From Phycisphaerae bacterium (lineage in GTDB: Bacteria > Planctomycetota > Phycisphaerae > UBA1845): 64,000 bases of DNA. Every line of letters begins with the position of its first letter. Positions within the stretch are counted from its first letter, which is position 1. The translations under genes and the position numbers were made by a program. Shown in pieces: positions 22,406 through 48,220 of this stretch. The notes below the pieces were generated by a model, which had not been told where the DNA came from, did not search any database, and saw only the letters and a list, made by a program, of their open reading frames with translations. The stretch lies in NCBI GenBank assembly GCA_963666835.2, contig CAXXGO010000006.1:864001-928000 (forward strand). The letters are read 5' to 3'.

Positions 22406-22597
22406 ACTCAGACTGTGATTGAGGCGATGTGCTGATGACGCCGAAACCCCGGATTTTCTTGAGTTCGGATGCTCCTCCAGCTATTATTGGTATTCATTAA
22501 GAGCAGGTACGCGGGGCGTCTTGGGTCGGTTTTCGCCAATCCGAACGGGGTGTCTCTGCAAATACGTTTTTGATGCAAGCAGCATGGAGTGCTGGTG

Positions 22598-25069
22598 ATG
22601 AATGACTATCCATTCCGGGTCGCCCGCCGGTTTCAGCGGGCCGGTTCGCTCGGAGTTGCCGTGGCCTTCGGTATCGTGACCCTTGGCGGGGTAGGCGCGG
22701 CACACGCGGCCGATCGCATGGTGTTATGCGAGGAATTCACGAACCAATATTGAGCGGCGTGCTCTTACGCGGGTCCCGCGTTAGGCTACCTCGTCGACAT
22801 CTACCCTGAGTCGTTCGCGTTCGTACAGTATCACATGTTCGACGACTACGATGACCCGTGGAGCGATGGTCGGTGGTCGTATTTCGGCGCCGAGCACACT
22901 CCGACGACCATCTTCGACGGGGTTGATTACGTCGAGGGCGGAATCAGCGATACTAACCAGCAGTATCACATCTTCCGAACCAACCACTTTCTCCCGCAGC
23001 GCGCGGTGCCGACGGATGTGACGCTCGAGCTGGCCGGTGAGTTCGTTACCGGGCAGACTTACCAGATCACGGCCACCGTGGGCATCGAGGCGGGGGGAAC
23101 GGGCAAGACCGTCCGGGTCTACATGGTGCAAGTTCTGGACCACTGGCCGGCGTCGCCGAGCTACTCGCGCAACACGTTCAAGCAAGCGGGCGACGTCAAA
23201 GAGATCACCCTCGCTCCCGGCGAGACCGATGCTGCGGTGGAGATGTTTACGTTCGACGCGGATAGCTGGGCGAATCAGGAGGAGATCCGGATCATCGCGT
23301 GGGCCCAGGCCGCGGAGGATGCCGGTCCGGTCGAAATGTACCAAGCCGCGGTTCTGAACTGGCCGCTGGTCTCCGCCCCCGGCGACGCCGACGGTGATGG
23401 CATTCTGGACGGGGCGGACAACTGCCCGCAGCACTACAACCCGACCCAGGACAACGGCGACACCGACGATTTCGGCGACGTGTGCGACAACTGCGATACG
23501 ACGGACAATGCGGACCAGGACGATGGTGACGACGACAGCGTCGGCGATGCCTGTGACAACTGTCCGGCACTACATCATCTCGATCAGGGCGATAACGACG
23601 GCGACGGGGTCGGTAATCCGTGCGACTGGTGCCCCGACGTTTCCGCTCCCGGCGGGGTGGACGAAGACGGGCGTTCCCTGGGAACGATCGACCTCGATTG
23701 CGACGTGGACGGCGACGACCTGGCCCTGTTCAACGGGTGTTTCACCGGTCCGGATATCACGGAACCGCCTCCGGGATGTGATCCGGCCGATTTCGCCCGG
23801 GCGGATCTCGACGGAGACATTGACGTCGACCTGGGCGACCGGGCGATCTTCGATCAGAACTACACCGGCCCGCTGGTCGGGCCGGCGTTGTACACCGGGT
23901 CCACCGCCTGTTCTACTTGCCACTCGACGAATCACACGGAATGGGCCGAGACCATCCACGCCACCGCGTTCGATACACTGGTAGCGAGCGGAGACGGAGA
24001 CAACCCCTTGTGCTTCCCGTGCCACACGGTGGGGTACGCGGAGGCGAGCGGTTTCGTCGACTTGGCCACCACACCGCAACTTGCGGACGTTCAATGTGAA
24101 AACTGCCATGGAGCCGGCAGCAACCACATCGCGTCTCCCGGCAGCGCGTCGATGACGATTGACCTGGCCTCGAACCTCTGCGGAGCGTGCCACCAGTCAT
24201 GCCACGGGTTGTGCGGGGACGATCACCATCCCCAGTTCGAACAATGGTCGGAGTCCAAGCACTCCACGGCGCTGAGCGACATTCAGTGGGAGCCCGGCAC
24301 GGTTGCAGAGTGCCTCGAATGTCACTCCACGGACTACCGCATGGCCCCCGCAGGGGATAAGCCCGGCCTGTTCGAAGTAGTGTTCGATCTAGAGTGCGTG
24401 GCCTGCCACGACGCTCACGGAGGGCCCAACGTCGGCCAGCTTCGCCTGCCGCCGCGGCAGTTGTGTGCCGAGTGCCACACCACCGGCGTGGTGGTGCCCG
24501 GCGAAGAGCCCGAGCAACCGCAACTCGAAGCCCTGCACGGGGAAGGCGGCTTCAAGCTGGACGGCACCTCGTTGAAAGGGCCTTATACCGAGCACTGGTG
24601 GGGAATCCCGACGGAATGCGCCGCCTGCCATGTGTTCGCCGAGCCCTACGGCGGGCCGGATCAGCCGGTCAACAGCGGGCACACCTTCGAAGCGAACCGG
24701 CGGGCTTGCGGCCCGTGCCACACGGAAGAATCCGCCAACGCCCTGCTGGGCATGTTGCAGGGAGAGATCTCGGCACGCCTGGCGGGCATCGCCCATTACT
24801 TCGATCCTGGTGATCCGCTGTATGTTGACCCGGCGACCCTGACCCCGGAGCAGTTGGCCCGGTACAACGTTGCCAAGTTCAACTACGAGTTCGTGATCGC
24901 GGACAGGTCCCACGGCGCGCACAATCCCGGCTACGCCCGGGCGTTGCTGGCCCAGACTGAGTTCTTTTTCGGGATCACACCCTGGTTGCTTCAACCGGGA
25001 GGAGACGATATTCCCGCGCCGGCCGACGGTGTTCTGGAGATTGCAGAAGGAGCGGAGGTGGGCCGATGA
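22598..25069 (+). CDS. Predicted selenoprotein (823 aa, Sec52): signal peptide, UxxC Omp28/thioredoxin-like domain, TSP3 repeats, dockerin-like domain, nine-heme cytochrome c
   Basis: ATG 22598 is in frame with the listed ORF 22835-25069 through a single TGA (22751-22753): MVLCEEFTNQY-U-AAC-SYAGPAL; nine CxxCH motifs; stop overlaps next start (ATGA). Confidence 0.85.
22754..22787 (+). promoter_or_regulatory. Bacterial SECIS-like hairpin
   Basis: ACGCGG-GTC-CCGCGT stem (22767-22781); GGTC apex follows the TGA after an 18-nt spacer. Confidence 0.75.
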
Positions 25070-26058
25070 GGATCACTCGACGTGAGTTCCTGAAAGCGGC
25101 TGCGGCCATGGTCGCGGCGGGGAAGATGGCTCCCGTAGCATTCGCGAACCTGCAGGAGACTCTGCGGGGCGAAGGCGCGCCACGAGTCATCTGGCTGCAA
25201 GGGGCGGGTTGCGACGGATGTGCGATCTCGCTGTTGAATTCCGTGCATTACACGACGGTCGACGACCTGCTGGTCAACACGATCGATCTGGAGTTCCAAA
25301 ACAACCTCATGGCCGCGGCCGGTGATCTTGCGGTATCGATCGCGCAAGCCGCCGCCGCCGAGCCCGGCTATATCCTAATCGTTGAGGGGGCCGTCCCCAC
25401 CGGAGCGAGCGGCCAGTATTGCCGGCTGTGGTCGGGAATGACGATGCACAGTGCCCTGCTCGCGTACGGCCCGGACGCCGGCAGTATTATCGCGTTGGGG
25501 GCTTGCGCATCGTTCGGGGGGGTCTCGGGTGGGGCGCCGAACCCGACCGACGCCCAAGGTGTGGGCGACATCATCGGAGACGACCCGCGGTTGATTAACA
25601 TCCCAGGTTGTCCGGCCCACCCCGATTGGCTTGTGGGCACTCTGACGTACCTGCTGACCACGGGGCATACTCCGCCGTTGGATGAGTATCACCGGCCTTT
25701 GGAGTATTTCGGCAAGCGGATTCACGACAACTGCTTCAAGCGGCGCGAGTATTGCGGTACCGGGGTTTTTGCCTCCAACCTCAGCGAAGAGGGCTGCATG
25801 GAGTTCCTCGGCTGCAAGGGCAAGAAGACCTACGCTGATTGCCCGATCCGCAAGTGGAACAGCGGTGAAGAGGGCGGCAGCGGTGTGAACTGGTGCATCG
25901 GGGCGCGGAGTCCGTGTCTTGGTTGCGTGGAGCCCACTTTCCCGGACGGGATGTCTCCGTTCTACGTGTATTCGCCTACCCCGGAGAAACTCGAGGGGGG
26001 CGCCGGCTCCGAAACGCTGCAGACCAAACCGCAATCGATTGACAAGAAGCCGAGTTGA
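25066..26058 (+). CDS. [NiFe] hydrogenase small subunit, Tat-exported, group 1a-like
   Basis: TRREFLK Tat motif; CDGC, GAC, PGCP, HDNC, GCKG, NWC...PCLGC; no C-terminal TM anchor. Confidence 0.93.
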   Translation: MRITRREFLKAAAAMVAAGKMAPVAFANLQETLRGEGAPRVIWLQGAGCDGCAISLLNSVHYTTVDDLLVNTIDLEFQNNLMAAAGDLAVSIAQAAAAEPGYILIVEGAVPTGASGQYCRLWSGMTMHSALLAYGPDAGSIIALGACASFGGVSGGAPNPTDAQGVGDIIGDDPRLINIPGCPAHPDWLVGTLTYLLTTGHTPPLDEYHRPLEYFGKRIHDNCFKRREYCGTGVFASNLSEEGCMEFLGCKGKKTYADCPIRKWNSGEEGGSGVNWCIGARSPCLGCVEPTFPDGMSPFYVYSPTPEKLEGGAGSETLQTKPQSIDKKPS

Positions 26059-43300: not shown

Positions 43301-44329
43301 GGGTCTGACGATCTCGCGGCACGGGTTGAGGAGCTTGGCCGGGAGTTGGCGCGCAACAGAGACGACGCCACGCGCCAAGACACCATGCAGCGGCAGGCGG
43401 AGCACCTGGCCGCGCAGATCGAATCAGCCCGCCGACAGGCGGAGGAGTCGGCCCAGACGATCGCGACGCTGTTCAAAGAGGCCGACGTTGTTGATGAAGA
43501 TACATTTCGCAAGTACGGCCGGTTGTACGCCGAGCGGGTCGGCCTGGGCGACGCGATCGAGCAGGCGAAGTCCACCATTCGCGGAATCTCCGGCGAGATG
43601 GACCTGGAGCTTCTGAAGACGAAGCTGGCGGAGACCTCCCGGGAGCAACTTGACGTGCGGCAGGGCGAGGTCCTTGGGGAGGTTGAGGAACTCGAGAAGC
43701 GGTCGCACGACCTGCGCGATACGAAGGCGGAACTGACGAACAGAATCGAGGCCATGAGGACCGCCGACACGGTTTCGCGGCTACGGGCGGACCGGGAGCG
43801 AGTTCTCGCGGAGATTCGCCCGCTGGCACTGCAGTGGACCCGCTACGCTCTTGCCGAAATGTTATTGGACCGGGCGGGCAAGCGATTCGAGAAAGAGCAA
43901 CAACCCCGAGTAGTACGTGACGCGGCCGAGTTCTTCGGCAGAATGACCGGTGGGAAGTACGAGAGGGTCGTTGCCCCAGTAGGTGCTGATACGTTCGAAG
44001 TTGTGACCGCCGCGGACGCCGAGCGCCGGACCCCCGACCAGCTCAGCCGTGGAACGACGGAACAGCTCTATCTGGCGCTGCGTTTTGGATATATCCGCCT
44101 GCGTGCCGCCGATCACGAGCGGCTTCCCATCGTAATGGACGATATTCTGGTGAACTTCGACCCGCAGCGCGCCACCAGGGCCGCCGCGGCGATTCTCGAA
44201 CTGGCGCGGGAGCACCAGGTTCTGTTTTTCACCTGCCACCCCGAGACGGTCGCCCGGTTCCGGCGCGAAGACCCCACCCTTCCGCTCTACCGGCTCCGCG
44301 AATCCTCGCTGACCGTCGAAACTCCGTGA
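40382..44329 (+). CDS. YhaN-type SMC-like ATPase (AAA_27) with central TM hairpin
   Basis: GDNEAGKST, long coiled coils, LSRGT.EQLYLALR, MDDILVNFD, FTCH. Confidence 0.9.
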   Translation: MRITALHINSFGIFRGMSLPDVPPGLVLIQGDNEAGKSTLLWFIRGILFGYPDGRSRDPGYRLGDGETHGGRLEIVTDHDIPYTIARRGVRGGGEVTITDSAGGSGSLHDLLGGTTAQLYRNIYAFSLSELHTIDSLQADGVKGAIYGAASGTALMALPQARKIISDKLDDTFKSRGQKQQINIRLAELDAINESLRETSKDIDRYNEACTQLTKTEAELGELLSRMRDSRIESGRIDTLLKVWPEWVKLQDCEENLRNLPLVVESFPEDGLGRLETANQVLLQNRERLRELVEEHAILRRDIADLNVDPDVLAAGETISVLTESRAGYLAARADLPLKRQAHASVDAEIAELRRRLGPGWTEEEIRTSDCSVSAREAIRRHDQGLTVAGEELARAEQDAAAREETHKQTVADEQRARKKVEQFADSDAVDEQLVRRLQTKRELFREAATDLPQVQADLNTARARVLQNVREIDARWTVENVANFDVSVAAQQKIQDFADRLEITKQDRDKAESLRIAAVELLRAGREQRDAVQEELEQLPEGFDRDELTRRLAAISALEGALRERTENAREIRFSEARLGDKRQELTRLKLQSPASNKVPRWVPFPALLIAAAAPVAGWALGQLPEAGGVSALFAVVAVLCFAWRRRTEARSAGAQKAHTAAVEELSREIRNLESELAVLAEGEVAREEKIDKHARAAALSAKADAEEISTARESIEHDLDVLKSRDRLEADLRKRNEEVQRLTDKLAETDRVLQAHADEMAGVKDDWRNHQQHLGLAPESAVQTVQLIFTKVAAVRDQIAGLEELEKRIARMSTGRDSYLDLARQAPPLAPYCEGPPADLLSAVDRFLEEVQRQQDNMKERALAQRNLAEVGRRVMAASDALKQAREALDTAARRQTTAQTAWQEWLTQRGFDGDMSPPTALDTLKLIEDGVRMLRERDQLDDVIARLDAETAGYEQTAAAVFEKLNRSVPGSDDLAARVEELGRELARNRDDATRQDTMQRQAEHLAAQIESARRQAEESAQTIATLFKEADVVDEDTFRKYGRLYAERVGLGDAIEQAKSTIRGISGEMDLELLKTKLAETSREQLDVRQGEVLGEVEELEKRSHDLRDTKAELTNRIEAMRTADTVSRLRADRERVLAEIRPLALQWTRYALAEMLLDRAGKRFEKEQQPRVVRDAAEFFGRMTGGKYERVVAPVGADTFEVVTAADAERRTPDQLSRGTTEQLYLALRFGYIRLRAADHERLPIVMDDILVNFDPQRATRAAAAILELAREHQVLFFTCHPETVARFRREDPTLPLYRLRESSLTVETP

Positions 44330-44432
44330 CAGTCAGTCAACATGCGACATGTGCGGTGGGGGAATCTCCACGTGCAACGCCCGGGACCGACCACCCTTCC
44401 ATGCCACCGGCAAACCAATGTAGCGCTAGGGC

Positions 44433-44461
44433 TTGACTCGGGCTGCCCGATCCGATAGGAT
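44433..44461 (+). promoter_or_regulatory. sigma70 promoter
   Basis: TTGACT-N17-TAGGAT. Confidence 0.65.
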
Positions 44462-44462
44462 G

Positions 44463-44485
44463 GGGGTGTTACGATGTAATATTCC
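44463..44485. promoter_or_regulatory. Zur-box-like operator overlapping the transcription start
   Basis: GGGGTGTTACGATGTAATATTCC aligns ungapped to the proteobacterial Zur consensus GAAATGTTATA-N-TATAACATTTC. Confidence 0.5.
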
Positions 44486-44488
44486 ACG

Positions 44489-44815
44489 ATGCGGGTGGAA
44501 CCTAGGGTGATTCGATCGGTTCTGACAATCTCGTTTGGGGCGATGTTGACTGTGGTGGCCAGCGGATGGCCGGCGGCGTCTCATCTGCAGGCTTGCCACG
44601 AGCATCACAGAGAAGGGTCTCATCACGACTCGGACCGTTGCATTGTTTGCCAGACGTTGGTGGCGGCGTCCCAAGGCCTGCAGGTCGCTCCGGCCGCGGA
44701 TATGCTCGAGGTCGCTTATTCCGTTGATGATCATCAACCACCGTCCACTCGGATTCGAGGGCCGGTCGAGTTCCGATCGGCGACTCCCCGCGCCCCCCCT
44801 GAATTCGTTTCCTAG
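44489..44815 (+). CDS. DUF2946-like protein (His-rich, CxxC, C-terminal RAPP)
   Basis: Hydrophobic N-terminus, HEHH...HH, CIVC, PRAPP. Confidence 0.75.
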   Translation: MRVEPRVIRSVLTISFGAMLTVVASGWPAASHLQACHEHHREGSHHDSDRCIVCQTLVAASQGLQVAPAADMLEVAYSVDDHQPPSTRIRGPVEFRSATPRAPPEFVS

Positions 44816-44981
44816 AACATTGTTGAGTTTGCGGTTCGACGTTGTGGGTGTTCGCGGCGCAGTTATGCGCTGACCATAGCGCGCCGGGTAAATCAAACCG
44901 TGCATAGTTCGCGGTAACCGTTCGGTGCGCGAGTAACTTGGAGTACGCGCCGGGTTCAACGCCCGGTGAATGGAGGGTGCA

Positions 44982-45893
44982 ATGATCAAACGACCGATCT
45001 TGGTGATTCTTACGGTGTTGTTGTTTGTCGGGTCTGCGCTGCAGGGACGGGCTCGGGGCGAAACGTGGGGAACTGCGACGTCGCTTTCATCCCAGGACAG
45101 TAGTGCCTGCCCGTTGGCACATACCCATATCGGCAAGAACCCGACATGGAGGCCGGATTGGAGTGACCCCGGCAACTCGGCCGGCGCCACCGATCCGGAC
45201 CCGACCGATGACAACAAACTGTGGTTGTTCTCGATTCCGCCGGTGCATGCGGTTGCGCCTACCCCGGGCTGGCCGAACTGGGGAGAAGAGAACAGTACCC
45301 CGTTCTTGCTACTATCGCCCGCGACTAATCCGAACGGCGATCCGATCTACAAGCCGGGAGACTCGTCGCAGATACTGTACGAAAGTTCTTTCATGTACAG
45401 CGCCGTCGACGGATACGACGATCCGAACGGGGTACTTCATATTGACGGATGGCACTCGGCCCACGGCCCGCAGGGGGCTTGGAACCTCGAGAGCGTCGAC
45501 CAGGCAACCGAGCCGTCGTGGGACATCCGTCTGGTGCGCGAGAGTGTAAGCCTTGCGCAAGATGACTTCTTCATGGCCTTGCCGAATGGCACGACCGTTC
45601 TGACCGCCGACGGTGACGAGTACGCTCTGCAAAAGAGGTGGCTCGATGACTTCTCTGCATGGGGCATGCACGAGCACATGAGCTTCAACTTCTGGCTCGC
45701 CGCTGATGGAAGCGACCTGGGGAGTGAGGTTGTCGCGACGTTCAGCGCCTACGACGCTGGTGGCATGTACACCCCATCGGATGCGTTTGACTTCCGCTTC
45801 AGGGTCGTACCCGAACCTGTGACTCTGAGCATGTTGATGCTCGGCGGGGTCGGGCTGGTCATCCACCGTCGCACCAGGATGAGTCACGTATGA
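44982..45893 (+). CDS. PEP-CTERM surface protein, His-rich, putative metal binding
   Basis: Signal peptide; [23 protein letters not shown] + TM + RRTR. Confidence 0.85.
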
Positions 45894-45993
45894 CAAAGGT
45901 CTGACGGTCGGCGCGGAGGGTGCGGTCTGCCGGACCCTCCCGCGCCGACCTCGGACGATACTCGCTAAGCGGAAACACGAAAGGAGGCCCGCC

Positions 45994-46728
45994 GTGAGAA
46001 GGACAAAGGCGTTTACGCTGATCGAACTTCTTGTCGTTGTTGCCATCATCGCCCTGCTGATCGCCATGCTGTTGCCGTCGCTGCAGAGAGCTCGGGCGCA
46101 AACCAAGACCATGAGGTGCATGAACAACTGCAAGGAGATCGGACTGGCCGTCGAGCTGTACGGTCAGAACAACTTCGGTCGCTTTCCCCTCAGCGGCGGG
46201 CATGGCGGTGTCGCAGACCCGCAGACCTGGTGGTTCAACGTGTTGGCCCGCGCGGATGTCAATACCTCGCTGCTCTACCGATGTCCAACGGACCCGGCGG
46301 AGAATTTCGTTGACTGGGAGAAGGTGGACTGGGAGGGGGTGGACGACGAGTTCCTCACGAAGCTCCAGGAGAAGCGCTGGGGCAGCTATGCCCTCAACTA
46401 CTTGATGGCCAAGGAGCCCAACCCGTATTGCCACCGCCTTTCGCGAATCAAAAAGCCCACCCACACGATCTTCATCGCTGAGGCGGCGGACACGCTGGCG
46501 GGAGTAGACCACGTGCATCCGGAGCGGTTCCTGCTCATGCCCCCGGAACGCCAGGTGGCCATCGAACGCCACCTCGGCAAGGCCTGCTACCTGTTTGTGG
46601 ACGGGCATGTGGATACCCTGACCCTGGCGGATACCTGGGAGCCGGGAAAGCGGAACCTCTGGGATCCCAAAAACGCGCCCACCTGGAGTGATGATCTGAC
46701 GGCGCCGACACCGCCGCCGAAACCCTGA
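45994..46728 (+). CDS. Prepilin-type N-terminal cleavage / H-X9-DG (DUF1559-like) protein
   Basis: [36 protein letters not shown]. Confidence 0.9.
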
Positions 46729-46864
46729 CGTCGTCCGGCAGTCTACTACTAAGTCACACCTGGGTTCTCGGGTGGGCCACCGCTCTTGGGCGGTGCAGGG
46801 ACGGGGCACGGTGCGGAACGTCGAGCGAGACAACATTGCTATTACAACACCTGGAGATGAAACC

Positions 46865-47626
46865 ATGATGCTGCCACACAAGATAGCCGCGGCCACGTCC
46901 CTTATTGTGCTCGTGGCGTTCCAGCCGGTCCGTGCGGACCACGGCTGACCACTTGACCATTTTGCAATTGGTCAATTGCAGGGAAAGCTCTTTGCGGATG
47001 TTGAGGAACTGTACCTCACGCACACGGGGAAGCCGTATCGAAGCCATTACCCACTGAATTACTCGTGGTATCTCAACGCCTACGTAAACGGCGAACCGGG
47101 TTCCGAGCAGATTGAGAATGACCCCGAGCACGAACTAGTAGGAACGCCGGAGACAACGTACGACGTCTGGCTCGATATCGTGGCCCTGTCTCCCAGCCTC
47201 TACGTGTACGTGACAAACGCAGATACCTGGTATTTTGAGGGGGACCGGATTCACCTGAGCAACGTCCCTTATCACCACGTACACGTGGACTACTGGGTGT
47301 TGGCCGCGGACTACGACGAGAATGACCTTATCTACGCCGTCTATAGGTTAGTCGACGAGCAAGACCGGTACGAGCCTTCCGCCGACTTTGCGGTAGTGTT
47401 CAACCGGTCCGTGCCGGGGGACTTTGCATCCGACGGGCATATCGACCTGCAGGACTACGTTCAGATGGCGGCCGCTATGACCGGGCCGGGGACCTCGCAG
47501 CCGGACGCGGAACTTGCAGATGTTGACTACGACGGTGACGACGATGTTGATCTGCGGGATGCTGCTCAGTTCCTGCGCTGTTTCAGTGGCCCGGATGAAC
47601 ATCCTGATCCAAGATGCGCGGAATGA
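46865..47626 (+). CDS. Predicted selenoprotein (253 aa, Sec28): secreted His-rich protein with C-terminal dockerin-like domain
   Basis: GGAG RBS; ATG 46865 gives signal peptide ...PVRA then DHG-U-PLDHFAIG, in frame with listed ORF 46976-47626 through TGA 46946-46948; HHVH; DFASDGHIDLQD / DYDGDDDVDLRD. Confidence 0.8.
46949..46980 (+). promoter_or_regulatory. Bacterial SECIS-like hairpin
   Basis: TGCAATT-GGTC-AATTGCA perfect stem (46963-46980); GGTC apex follows the TGA after a 21-nt spacer. Confidence 0.7.
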
Positions 47627-47709
47627 CCGGCGCTGTCGGATTAGGTCTATCGTTCGGGAAGAAGGTGTATCCGGATGGTCCATGGAATTAACGTAGCGCC
47701 GCGGCTTGC

Positions 47710-48220
47710 CCCTCGTTGTTCTACACATCATTCGACGCATTCACCAACTGCAACCGTTCGATCTTCGATCTCGATTCTCCAGCCCGAAGGGCTCAGATGA
47801 AGTAGCCGGGGGCAAGTCCGCCAACGGCGGACGCCGCCCCCGGACCCGATCCCCACAACCTCCCTGACCCCGGTAGGGGTCAAATGCCTTGGGCGAATGC
47901 GTTTCGCGAGGCCGCCATGTCTGTCGACGCATTCTCAATAAGGTCGGATAGCGTCAACAGACGCGCGGTTCATCGACGCCGCCTCTTTCACCCTTCAGGG
48001 TGATTGGGATTGTTGGGCTCCCACCGGGGGCGGCGGCCGCTACGCGGCCTTGCCCCCGGCTACTATCTTGCAGGCTTTCAGCCTGAACACCGAGCCGGCT
48101 CGACGCCTTTCGCTGAAAAGTAAGCCGCGCCTTGCGGCCTTTCAGGCTGGGGATTGGGTCGCCGCGGAGTCGGACGGATACGCTTCGCTCGCCCGACAGA
48201 GATGTGTAGAACAACGAGGG
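47710..48220. mobile_element. MITE-like element with 20-bp perfect terminal inverted repeats enclosing a REP pair
   Basis: CCCTCGTTGTTCTACACATC / GATGTGTAGAACAACGAGGG; inner 15-bp IR GTAGCCGGGGGCAAG (47802) / CTTGCCCCCGGCTAC (48049). Confidence 0.7.

Follow-up and report, generated by a model that had tools for sequence, protein, structure and literature searches.

A predicted selenoprotein with a putative metal-binding selenocysteine in a surface protein cassette of Phycisphaerae

The cassette and the gene with the in-frame TGA

The window, by which we mean the whole analyzed stretch of 64,000 nucleotides from contig CAXXGO010000006.1 of a Phycisphaerae bacterium, contained a gene cassette preceded by a predicted promoter and a palindromic operator (Table 1). 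The genome, here called G000, is 6.0 Mb in size and 92% complete. A counterpart of the first gene, the DUF2946-like ORF, reached the cut-off in G816, and the D-H-x-H motif of the DUF1559 protein was present in all of the 14 related loci. The PEP-CTERM gene, the DUF1559 gene and the C/U-x-x-D-H gene, as we refer to the family of the predicted selenoprotein, were located in this order in 13 of the 14 long loci from Phycisphaerae. The PEP-CTERM gene was found in 22 of the 279 genomes of the order, nearly always beside the C/U-x-x-D-H gene. No intrinsic terminator was found in a search at the cassette. It was also noted that the intergenic segment at 47790-48130, after the last gene, is GC-rich; shadow ORFs at other genomic sites contain similar sequence, and the segment may be a dispersed repeat.

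Table 1. Features of the cassette, with positions in the window unless given as protein residues.
Feature	Position	Strand	Details
Sigma70-like promoter, TTGACT-17-TAGGAT	44433..44461	+	Sole site in 44300-48200; about 1 expected by chance, weak alone
Palindromic operator GTAwTAC-n3-GTAwTAC, putative Zur-type box	44466..44482	.	19.2 bits; just 3' of the -10 element
Small His/Cys-rich DUF2946-like ORF	44489..44815	+	First gene of the cassette; Pfam DUF2946 18.4 bits, below the cut-off of 23.7
Surface protein with PEP-CTERM, from the sister family (C/H-x-x-A-H-T-H ... H-x-H)	44982..45893	+	Cys codon TGC 45108-45110
Prepilin-type N-methylation / DUF1559 protein	45994..46728	+	D-H-x-H at 46507-46521; H-X9-DG-like C-terminus
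Ribosome-binding site GGAG	46853..46856	+	From the sequence
Predicted selenoprotein gene, 253 aa	46865..47626	+	ATG 46865, stop 47624-47626, lone internal TGA at codon 28
In-frame TGA, predicted Sec28 (mature residue 4)	46946..46948	+	In U-P-L-D-H
SECIS-like hairpin	46960..46983	+	Core stem 46963-46980, loop GGTC 46970-46973
H-x-H (His138, His140), invariant; putative other half of the metal site	47276..47284	+	40/40 aligned sequences
Dockerin-like Ca-binding tail, frequent in the genome	47414..47566	+	Pfam Dockerin_1 18 bits, below the cut-off of 22.9
Signal peptide; Ig-like putative metal-binding domain; dockerin-like tail	Residues ~1-24; 25-183; ~184-250		Residues of the predicted selenoprotein

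A reading made from the sequence alone, hereafter the sequence-only reading, had proposed that the last gene of the cassette encodes a hidden secreted selenoprotein. The elements on which it relied, the GGAG, the ATG at 46865, a signal-peptide-like stretch ending in PVRA and the sequence D-H-G-TGA-P-L-D-H-F-A-I-G, were all present, and the TGA-containing frame was continuous with an ORF of 216 amino acids (46976-47626, translation table 11). The table-11 call starts at TTG 46976, and only this truncated product, which has neither a signal peptide nor the invariant C/U-x-x-D-H motif, is found in public collections. In the predicted full-length form, the mature chain would start with D-H-G-U-P-L-D-H-F-A-I-G and carry H-H-V-H later within a domain of 160 amino acids, followed by a tail with 2 Cys residues. 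The tail had 74 matches in the genome, and all of these, apart from the gene itself, matched the tail only in phmmer searches; no paralog of the N-terminal domain was found by phmmer in the genome except for the gene itself.

The TGA is not an assembly error. Contigs from 2 studies, X1 and X3, spanned positions 44400-47700 with 0 and 5 differences, none of which was listed at the TGA, and the codon was unchanged in an X5 contig covering the site; run X1 is possibly the source of the assembly from which the window was taken. Another record from X3 (record 15, matching 46507-47023) represents a second organism with the same junction between the DUF1559 gene and the Sec gene, in which the hairpin is altered.

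The sequence-only reading had also paired the protein with the PEP-CTERM protein encoded 2 genes upstream, as the Sec and Cys variants of a single metal-binding family. The segment C-P-L-A-H-T-H-I-G with its TGC codon was found in the upstream ORF, and the later HxH and Y-x-P-S motifs were present in both proteins. A BLAST comparison of the 2 proteins gave an E-value of 0.002, which is too weak alone to decide, and a profile comparison of the 2 families gave a probability of 98.8 and an E-value of 1.4e-16, to which the signal and tail columns contributed. CPLDH was aligned with CPLAHTH and HVH with HEH in the profile alignment, and members of the Sedimentisphaera type (C-P-L-D-H-x-x-I-G-x-N-x-D-G ... 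D-D-x-K-L) bridged both families. Judging from these comparisons, the upstream protein is a true distant paralog. The proposed homology was supported, with the refinement that the upstream gene is a member of a sister family and that the true Cys counterparts of the Sec protein are its orthologs from other genomes.

The upstream protein had 204 database homologs, and one member of its family (P0069) is from Sedimentisphaera cyanobacteriorum, a cultured carrier of the cassette. Of the 117 motif-bearing proteins among the 120 listed, 96 had Cys, 20 had His, and 1 had Asp at the position equivalent to Sec, while 20 genomic loci of the upstream family contained 15 Cys, 2 His, 3 with neither residue, and no TGA. 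In G225 (L070/L090/L128, C125:14160-15789), the upstream gene has a frameshift close to its beginning and follows a truncated, stop-bearing duplicate, which may reflect decay or an assembly error.

Homologs, hairpin and selenocysteine machinery

Six-frame searches were performed in overlapping sets of 61 relatives (8 matched), 279 genomes of the order (44 matched), and 401 genomes of the class (46 matched). Among 48 distinct full-domain loci, the site was encoded by TGA in 4 and was a Cys in 44; these counts leave out the duplicates L057 and L072, a frameshifted TGC copy in G120, a fragment in G186, and distant His-type matches. The TGA forms were those of G000, G017 (62% identity), G225 (76%), and G121 (35%), all of which had an intact signal peptide and an open frame. 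The class-wide search of the 401 genomes, from which 2 strong second copies were left out, identified no additional TGA member beyond the order, and a pattern scan of metagenomes identified 2 loci, both with Cys. The G120 copy (L049, C9:308943-309421) is a Cys form that is frameshifted after about 34 residues, and the upstream gene is also in pieces there.

In a quick, unrooted tree, in which L030 and L037 are labeled as U and L036 as C at the site, the Sec forms were located in 2 clades. A constraint to a single Sec clade was rejected (AU test, p = 8.5e-7), which suggests that Sec has been gained or lost several times, with the direction left free by the lack of a root. The weakest Sec case is G121, a single codon nested among Cys forms. 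Since 44 of the 48 members use Cys, many of them in genomes with selA, Sec is dispensable. A lipobox (L-x-[AG]-C) at the site was considered and rejected, since the residue before C/U was D or E in 28 of the 48 members, and U follows D-H-G in the predicted selenoprotein.

The machinery for Sec insertion was found in G000, which contained selA, selB located just upstream of selA, tRNA-Sec, and 2 genes for selD, one of which has a TGA of its own. In each of the other TGA genomes, G017, G225, and G121, selA, selB, and tRNA-Sec scored over the cut-off, and selA did so in 17 of the 23 carrier genomes tested. No Sec machinery over the cut-off was found in G042, a genome that is 97% complete and contains a close Cys ortholog. 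The association between TGA and the machinery is consistent but not statistically strong, because many carriers of Cys forms have selA and could make Sec.

The perfect 7-bp hairpin with a GGTC loop that had been described after the TGA was confirmed, with 7 Watson-Crick pairs, or 10 pairs with G-U pairs added. The bSECIS model, as given in the available text of PMC13188914, has a loop of 3 to 9 nt with a G in the first 2 positions, located 16 to 37 nt from the UGA, and a stem of 4 to 16 bp. Here, the GGUC loop is located at +21 from the UGA with a stem of 7 to 10 bp, in agreement with the rules for loop, spacing, and stem. The free energy was -9.4 kcal/mol in a 42-nt segment and -6.8 kcal/mol in a 36-nt segment, for a model threshold of at most -7.5 kcal/mol, and longer segments favored an alternative fold. 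For the 48 nt after the TGA, the minimum free energy structure was a different one with 2 hairpins, and the GGUC hairpin was the minimum in shorter segments only, in G000 as well as in the G017 and G225 orthologs.

A GGT-loop stem of at least 7 Watson-Crick pairs at this spacing followed 17 of the 157,693 TGA triplets in the genome, by a criterion that was set after the candidates had been seen. In 3000 synonymous recodings, an equal stem was obtained in 0.8% of the trials for G000, 1.0% for G017, 2.3% for G225, and 21% for G121, so that the hairpin in G121 is not significant. The Cys orthologs in G042, G184, and G203 lacked the hairpin (43% to 77% of recodings), and the Cys ortholog in G172 retained it together with TGC (2.1% of recodings), a combination best read as a recent reversion from Sec to Cys. 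The hairpin was conserved at the nucleotide level in 3 of the TGA genes: all 6 hairpin codons were identical between G000 and G017, as compared to 34 of 83 codons elsewhere (p ~0.005), while the 5 codons directly after the TGA all differed synonymously. GGT(A/C) loops were also found in the AhpC-, SelW/Rdx-, and SelD-related TGA genes and in 3 Omp28-related TGA genes of G000. Given the Sec machinery, the 44 Cys orthologs, the TGA in 3 other genomes, and the conserved SECIS-like hairpin, we read the codon as Sec, and on this comparative evidence the protein is very probably a real selenoprotein with Sec inserted at UGA28.

The genome was also scanned for other coding TGAs, and 11 candidates were searched against family libraries. 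Selenoproteins of known types were found at C7:86324, C1:1903505, C1:1170319, and C1:1243785 (L143, L144, L145, and L146), comprising DUF1573/OS_HP2-like, AhpC/TSA (U-x-x-C), SelT/W/H (C-x-x-U), and ArsC-related proteins. Within the window, a secreted Omp28-related candidate with U-x-x-C and a GGTC-loop hairpin is encoded at 22589-25138 on the forward strand (TGA at 22751; Omp28_seleno 36 bits, below the cut-off of 200). It is a fusion protein that also has dockerin-like parts and multiheme cytochrome c parts; its gene is located directly upstream of a gene for a NiFe-hydrogenase-like small subunit, and 2 TGA paralogs are found at C1:1961944 and C6:954496. A large secreted subtilase at C6:506508 (L139:1560-2369, reverse strand) has an in-frame TGA in L-R-F-L-G-G-G-G-U-G-G-A-S-D, with a Peptidase_S8 match of 189 bits across the TGA and a weak hairpin. 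Subtilases are absent from the 119-family table in the available text of PMC13188914, and this one could be a new selenoprotein or the product of a nonsense mutation. A Cys-rich secreted-type ORF of about 1000 amino acids at C6:1476308 (L142:2149-2958, forward strand) contains a TGA in F-A-D-G-U-M-C-H and a strong GGTC-loop hairpin; it matched no Pfam or NCBIfam family and is a candidate new selenoprotein. Finally, a small membrane-protein-like frame at C3:377743 (L148) combines a C-U dipeptide with a long GGTA-loop hairpin and matched no family.

Predicted fold, regulation and the putative metal site

The residues C/U5, D8, H9, H115, and H117 (mature-domain numbering) were invariant in all of the 40 aligned members, along with Y27, P55, G70, and D141. 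The AlphaFold model was an all-beta Ig-like sandwich (pLDDT 89), and the family contained neither a CxxC motif nor a thioredoxin fold. Models of the Sec family and of the upstream protein agreed in their top templates and in the register. The tails varied between dockerin-like and PEP-CTERM, the latter being found in some Cys homologs.

The suggestion that the family is undescribed was borne out: no model for the domain was identified in Pfam or NCBIfam 20.0, and the family was absent from Table 1 (119 families) in the available text of PMC13188914. The Sec protein had no NCBIfam match at E ≤ 1, the 40 members had no match to a curated selenoprotein at E ≤ 0.1, no sequence in the PDB matched the domain, and no Foldseek match was obtained at E ≤ 0.001. 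The words PEP-CTERM, dockerin, Planctomycet, and secreted do not occur in the available text of PMC13188914, and the family was not found in passages of PMC13326102 (BSepDB) and part of its one supplement; passages of PMC4807772 treat the selenoproteins FdhA and FmdB. The family is not described in the literature searched, which mostly lay outside the subscription journals, and it is very probably a new selenoprotein family.

The operator matrix was trained on relatives only, with the window site held out, although this site had been seen before the matrix was built. Of the relatives, 13 of 22 scored above 11 bits (training sites), with a shuffled maximum of 14.6 bits. The window operator was the top match in the genome, and the second match (19.0 bits, C1:720609) was located before the sole znuACB operon, the binding protein of which has a His-rich loop. 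The operator is thus common to the znuACB operon and the cassette, where it adjoins the predicted promoter, and it has a 6-3-6 shape that we take to be like that of Zur boxes. No operator was found upstream of the cassette in G017, G225, G100, G135, and G038, the first 2 of which are Sec genomes. Two adjacent AT-rich matches to the matrix (18.1 and 16.6 bits) were noted in an intergenic region at C3:334042-334077. A small ORF rich in Cys and His (C1:720073-720417, reverse strand), which may have a DNA-binding N-terminus, was noted between znuA and the operator.

From 13 neighborhoods, 178 ORFs were picked, and of these, visual inspection selected 44 for searches in Pfam and 16 for searches in NCBIfam. 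Genes of the Fur family adjoined the cassette in G175, G670, and G762. In G100, a ZigA gene (615 bits, over the cut-off) and the gene of a true ZepA (261 bits) were located within 5 kb of the cassette. A fragment of a ZIP transporter and DtxR-FeoA genes were found near the cassette in G762, and DtxR-FeoA and FeoB genes in G121. The surroundings in G100 (L132:349-15879) form an extended metal-uptake island of PEP-CTERM genes, the true ZepA and ZigA genes, the cassette, and further prepilin/DUF1559-type genes. The metal-ligand role of Sec that the sequence-only reading had put forward, with no metal named, is supported indirectly. As the operator and the gene neighborhood point to zinc, we consider this the most likely metal.

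We propose that SelB would bind the GGUC-loop hairpin so that Sec is inserted at UGA28, and that cleavage of the signal peptide would leave a mature D-H-G-U-P-L-D-H start on the Ig-like beta-sandwich. A single metal site, for which Zn2+ is the likeliest ion, may then be made up of Sec28 and Asp31/His32 together with the remote His138-x-His140, while the dockerin-like tail would tether the protein to the cell surface as the third of 3 surface His-rich proteins of the cassette. If a Zur-type regulator of the Fur family represses both the cassette and znuACB, the protein would be made under zinc starvation and would capture external zinc for uptake. Sec would serve as a softer, fully ionized stand-in for a Cys or His ligand and not as a redox center. 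Export and tethering, a single Sec/Asp/His/His/His site, zinc, and Zur control are, as a combination, on balance probable, giving a surface zinc scavenger with Sec as a metal ligand.

The full reading is that of an unlisted selenoprotein family in which Sec is a direct zinc ligand in a Zur-regulated extracellular scavenger, with a His/Cys/Sec series over 2 sister families and at least 2 independent adoptions of Sec within Phycisphaerae, and we assign it a probability of about 0.45. The zinc-scavenger proposal is weakened by the lack of an operator upstream of the cassette in 2 of the Sec genomes and by the DtxR and FeoA(B) genes near the cassette in G121 and G762, because of which Fe or Mn is possible. 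The same DtxR, FeoA, and FeoB neighbors speak for Sec as a ligand of a metal other than zinc (Cu, Ni, Co, Fe/Mn, Cd, or Hg), with the operator belonging to another Fur-family regulator, of which the genome offers 5 genes; none of 3 scanned neighbors reached the Zur cut-off. A selenolate with 2 to 3 His residues would suit Cu or Ni, PF01297 takes in both Zn and Mn binders, and the ESM Atlas, queried with a Cys homolog, gave a weak lead (score 0.84, TM 0.69) to a cluster with the automatic name 'metallo-mystery pair four-Cys motif protein'. However, the 40 members gave no NCBIfam match to the metallo-mystery family, the znuACB operon that has the operator in common with the cassette encodes a binding protein with a His-rich loop, and ZigA and ZepA are neighbors in G100; we regard a metal other than zinc as unlikely.

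Still less likely is that Sec has a redox or covalent role, in a Se-S or Se-Se bond or as a nucleophile, and that the histidines bind metal on their own. According to the available text of PMC13188914, redox enzymes make up most of the known selenoproteins; the present protein is predicted to be secreted, its dockerin tail has 2 Cys, and the same genome encodes several secreted Omp28-related UxxC selenoproteins. A second Cys, 8 to 9 residues downstream of the site in 12 of the 48 members, is compatible with a disulfide and counts against a metal ligand; however, it is absent from the Sec-bearing members, which also lack a CxxC motif and a thioredoxin fold. Since Cys and His are exchanged at the aligned residue of the sister family, where His replaces Cys in the 20 of 117 proteins noted above, a metal ligand is favored over a redox thiol. 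The least probable is that the TGA is a true stop, resulting either from a nonsense mutation or from a leader of 27 amino acids with a restart at TTG 46976. TGC and TGA are one change apart, only the truncated product is found in the databases, and decay could account for the G121 form as well as for the damaged cassette of G225. Against this, the TGA occurs at the same codon in 3 genera of one family with 62% to 76% protein identity and frames that are otherwise open, the hairpin codons are kept while adjacent synonymous sites vary, all of the TGA genomes have the Sec machinery, and a restart would cost the protein its signal peptide and its invariant motif.

Significance and comparison with known systems

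In characterized selenoproteins, Sec is nearly always a redox catalyst or a ligand of Mo, W, or Ni in enzymes. Direct binding of metal by Sec in the remaining families is inferred and awaits proof, according to the available text of a 2026 review (PMC13188914), and a role in zinc scarcity is not listed for any selenoprotein in its 119-family catalogue as available. The zinc-scavenger reading, if true, would mean that the bacterium spends selenium to acquire zinc, which would link the use of selenium to the physiology of zinc starvation and extend the ZepA-like surface scavengers to a cassette of 3 genes in Phycisphaerae. The domain is soluble, 160 amino acids long, and confidently modeled, and it occurs naturally with Sec, Cys, and His at one site, including the close Sec/Cys ortholog pair of G225 and G172, so that the benefit of Sec as a plain metal ligand is directly testable. 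The predicted frame also corrects a database entry that lacks the signal peptide and key ligands.

The general fold was similar to that of Ig-like structures (2l7q, 6fwv, CfaB pilins, and cupredoxin-like domains), with best Z-scores of 7.3 for the Sec-family model and 6.2, which is in the range of common arrangements and uninformative on function. SaoB, SaoX, SaoC, MbdU, the SO_0444 Cu/Zn efflux transporter, and CobW-related proteins likewise have a predicted Sec outside the thioredoxin fold that is proposed to be a metal ligand, but they have other folds, the motifs CU, UxC, and UxxC, and are mostly linked to heavy-metal resistance, according to the available text of PMC13188914. The U-x-x-D-H motif and the dockerin/PEP-CTERM surface type are found in none of these families.

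The His-type pairs of PEP-CTERM and dockerin proteins in Phycisphaerae start with H-x-G-D or H-E-E-D and contain the same domain (E-values of 1e-11 to 1e-4 with profile A1); atlas clusters with a similar fold had TM values of 0.67 to 0.73 in a search with a Cys homolog. They have the same tandem PEP-CTERM and dockerin arrangement and an L-H-x-H motif, whereas their N-terminus has neither Cys nor Sec, and the pairs seen have no DUF1559 gene in between.

The closest studied relative, although a distant one, is ZepA, which binds zinc and mediates its uptake (available text of PMC10957091). The Sec protein is predicted to have in common with ZepA/All3515 (NF040463; PMC10957091, available text) a secreted, surface-associated location, conserved His residues, and a Zur-type context, and an Ig-like sandwich is predicted for each. 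The C-terminal half of the Sec family resembles ZepA, with matches in 9 of 40 members at E-values down to 1.4e-5 (sub-threshold), and hhalign of A2 against a true ZepA gave a probability of 88%. The 75-bit cut-off of NF040463 was not reached: the Sec protein had no match, the upstream protein scored 16.5 bits, and the best among the relatives was a distant His-type protein with 38 bits. Nor did any of 301 sampled Planctomycetota genomes contain a protein over this cut-off, and the one true ZepA came from the neighborhood scan. The proposed ZepA site is H-X2-9-H-[FY]-H after strand 2, as in the HHGDHFH of ZepA P0147, which has no counterpart in the Sec protein, whereas the site proposed here combines the N-terminal U/C-x-x-D-H with the C-terminal HxH. 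Because ZepA has no C-terminal HxH and its His cluster is located elsewhere, its zinc site is not transferable. A correspondence of Sec to the first His in the ZepA H-X-H-[FY]-H motif was considered and rejected, since the profile alignments, which cover the C-terminal half only, do not bring the sites together. ZepA ends in PEP-CTERM and the Sec protein in a dockerin-like tail, and the word cysteine does not occur in the available text of the ZepA paper (PMC10957091), whereas the present protein is predicted to contain Sec. The Sec protein probably works like ZepA but lies outside the ZepA family, from which it differs in score, motif position, and anchor.
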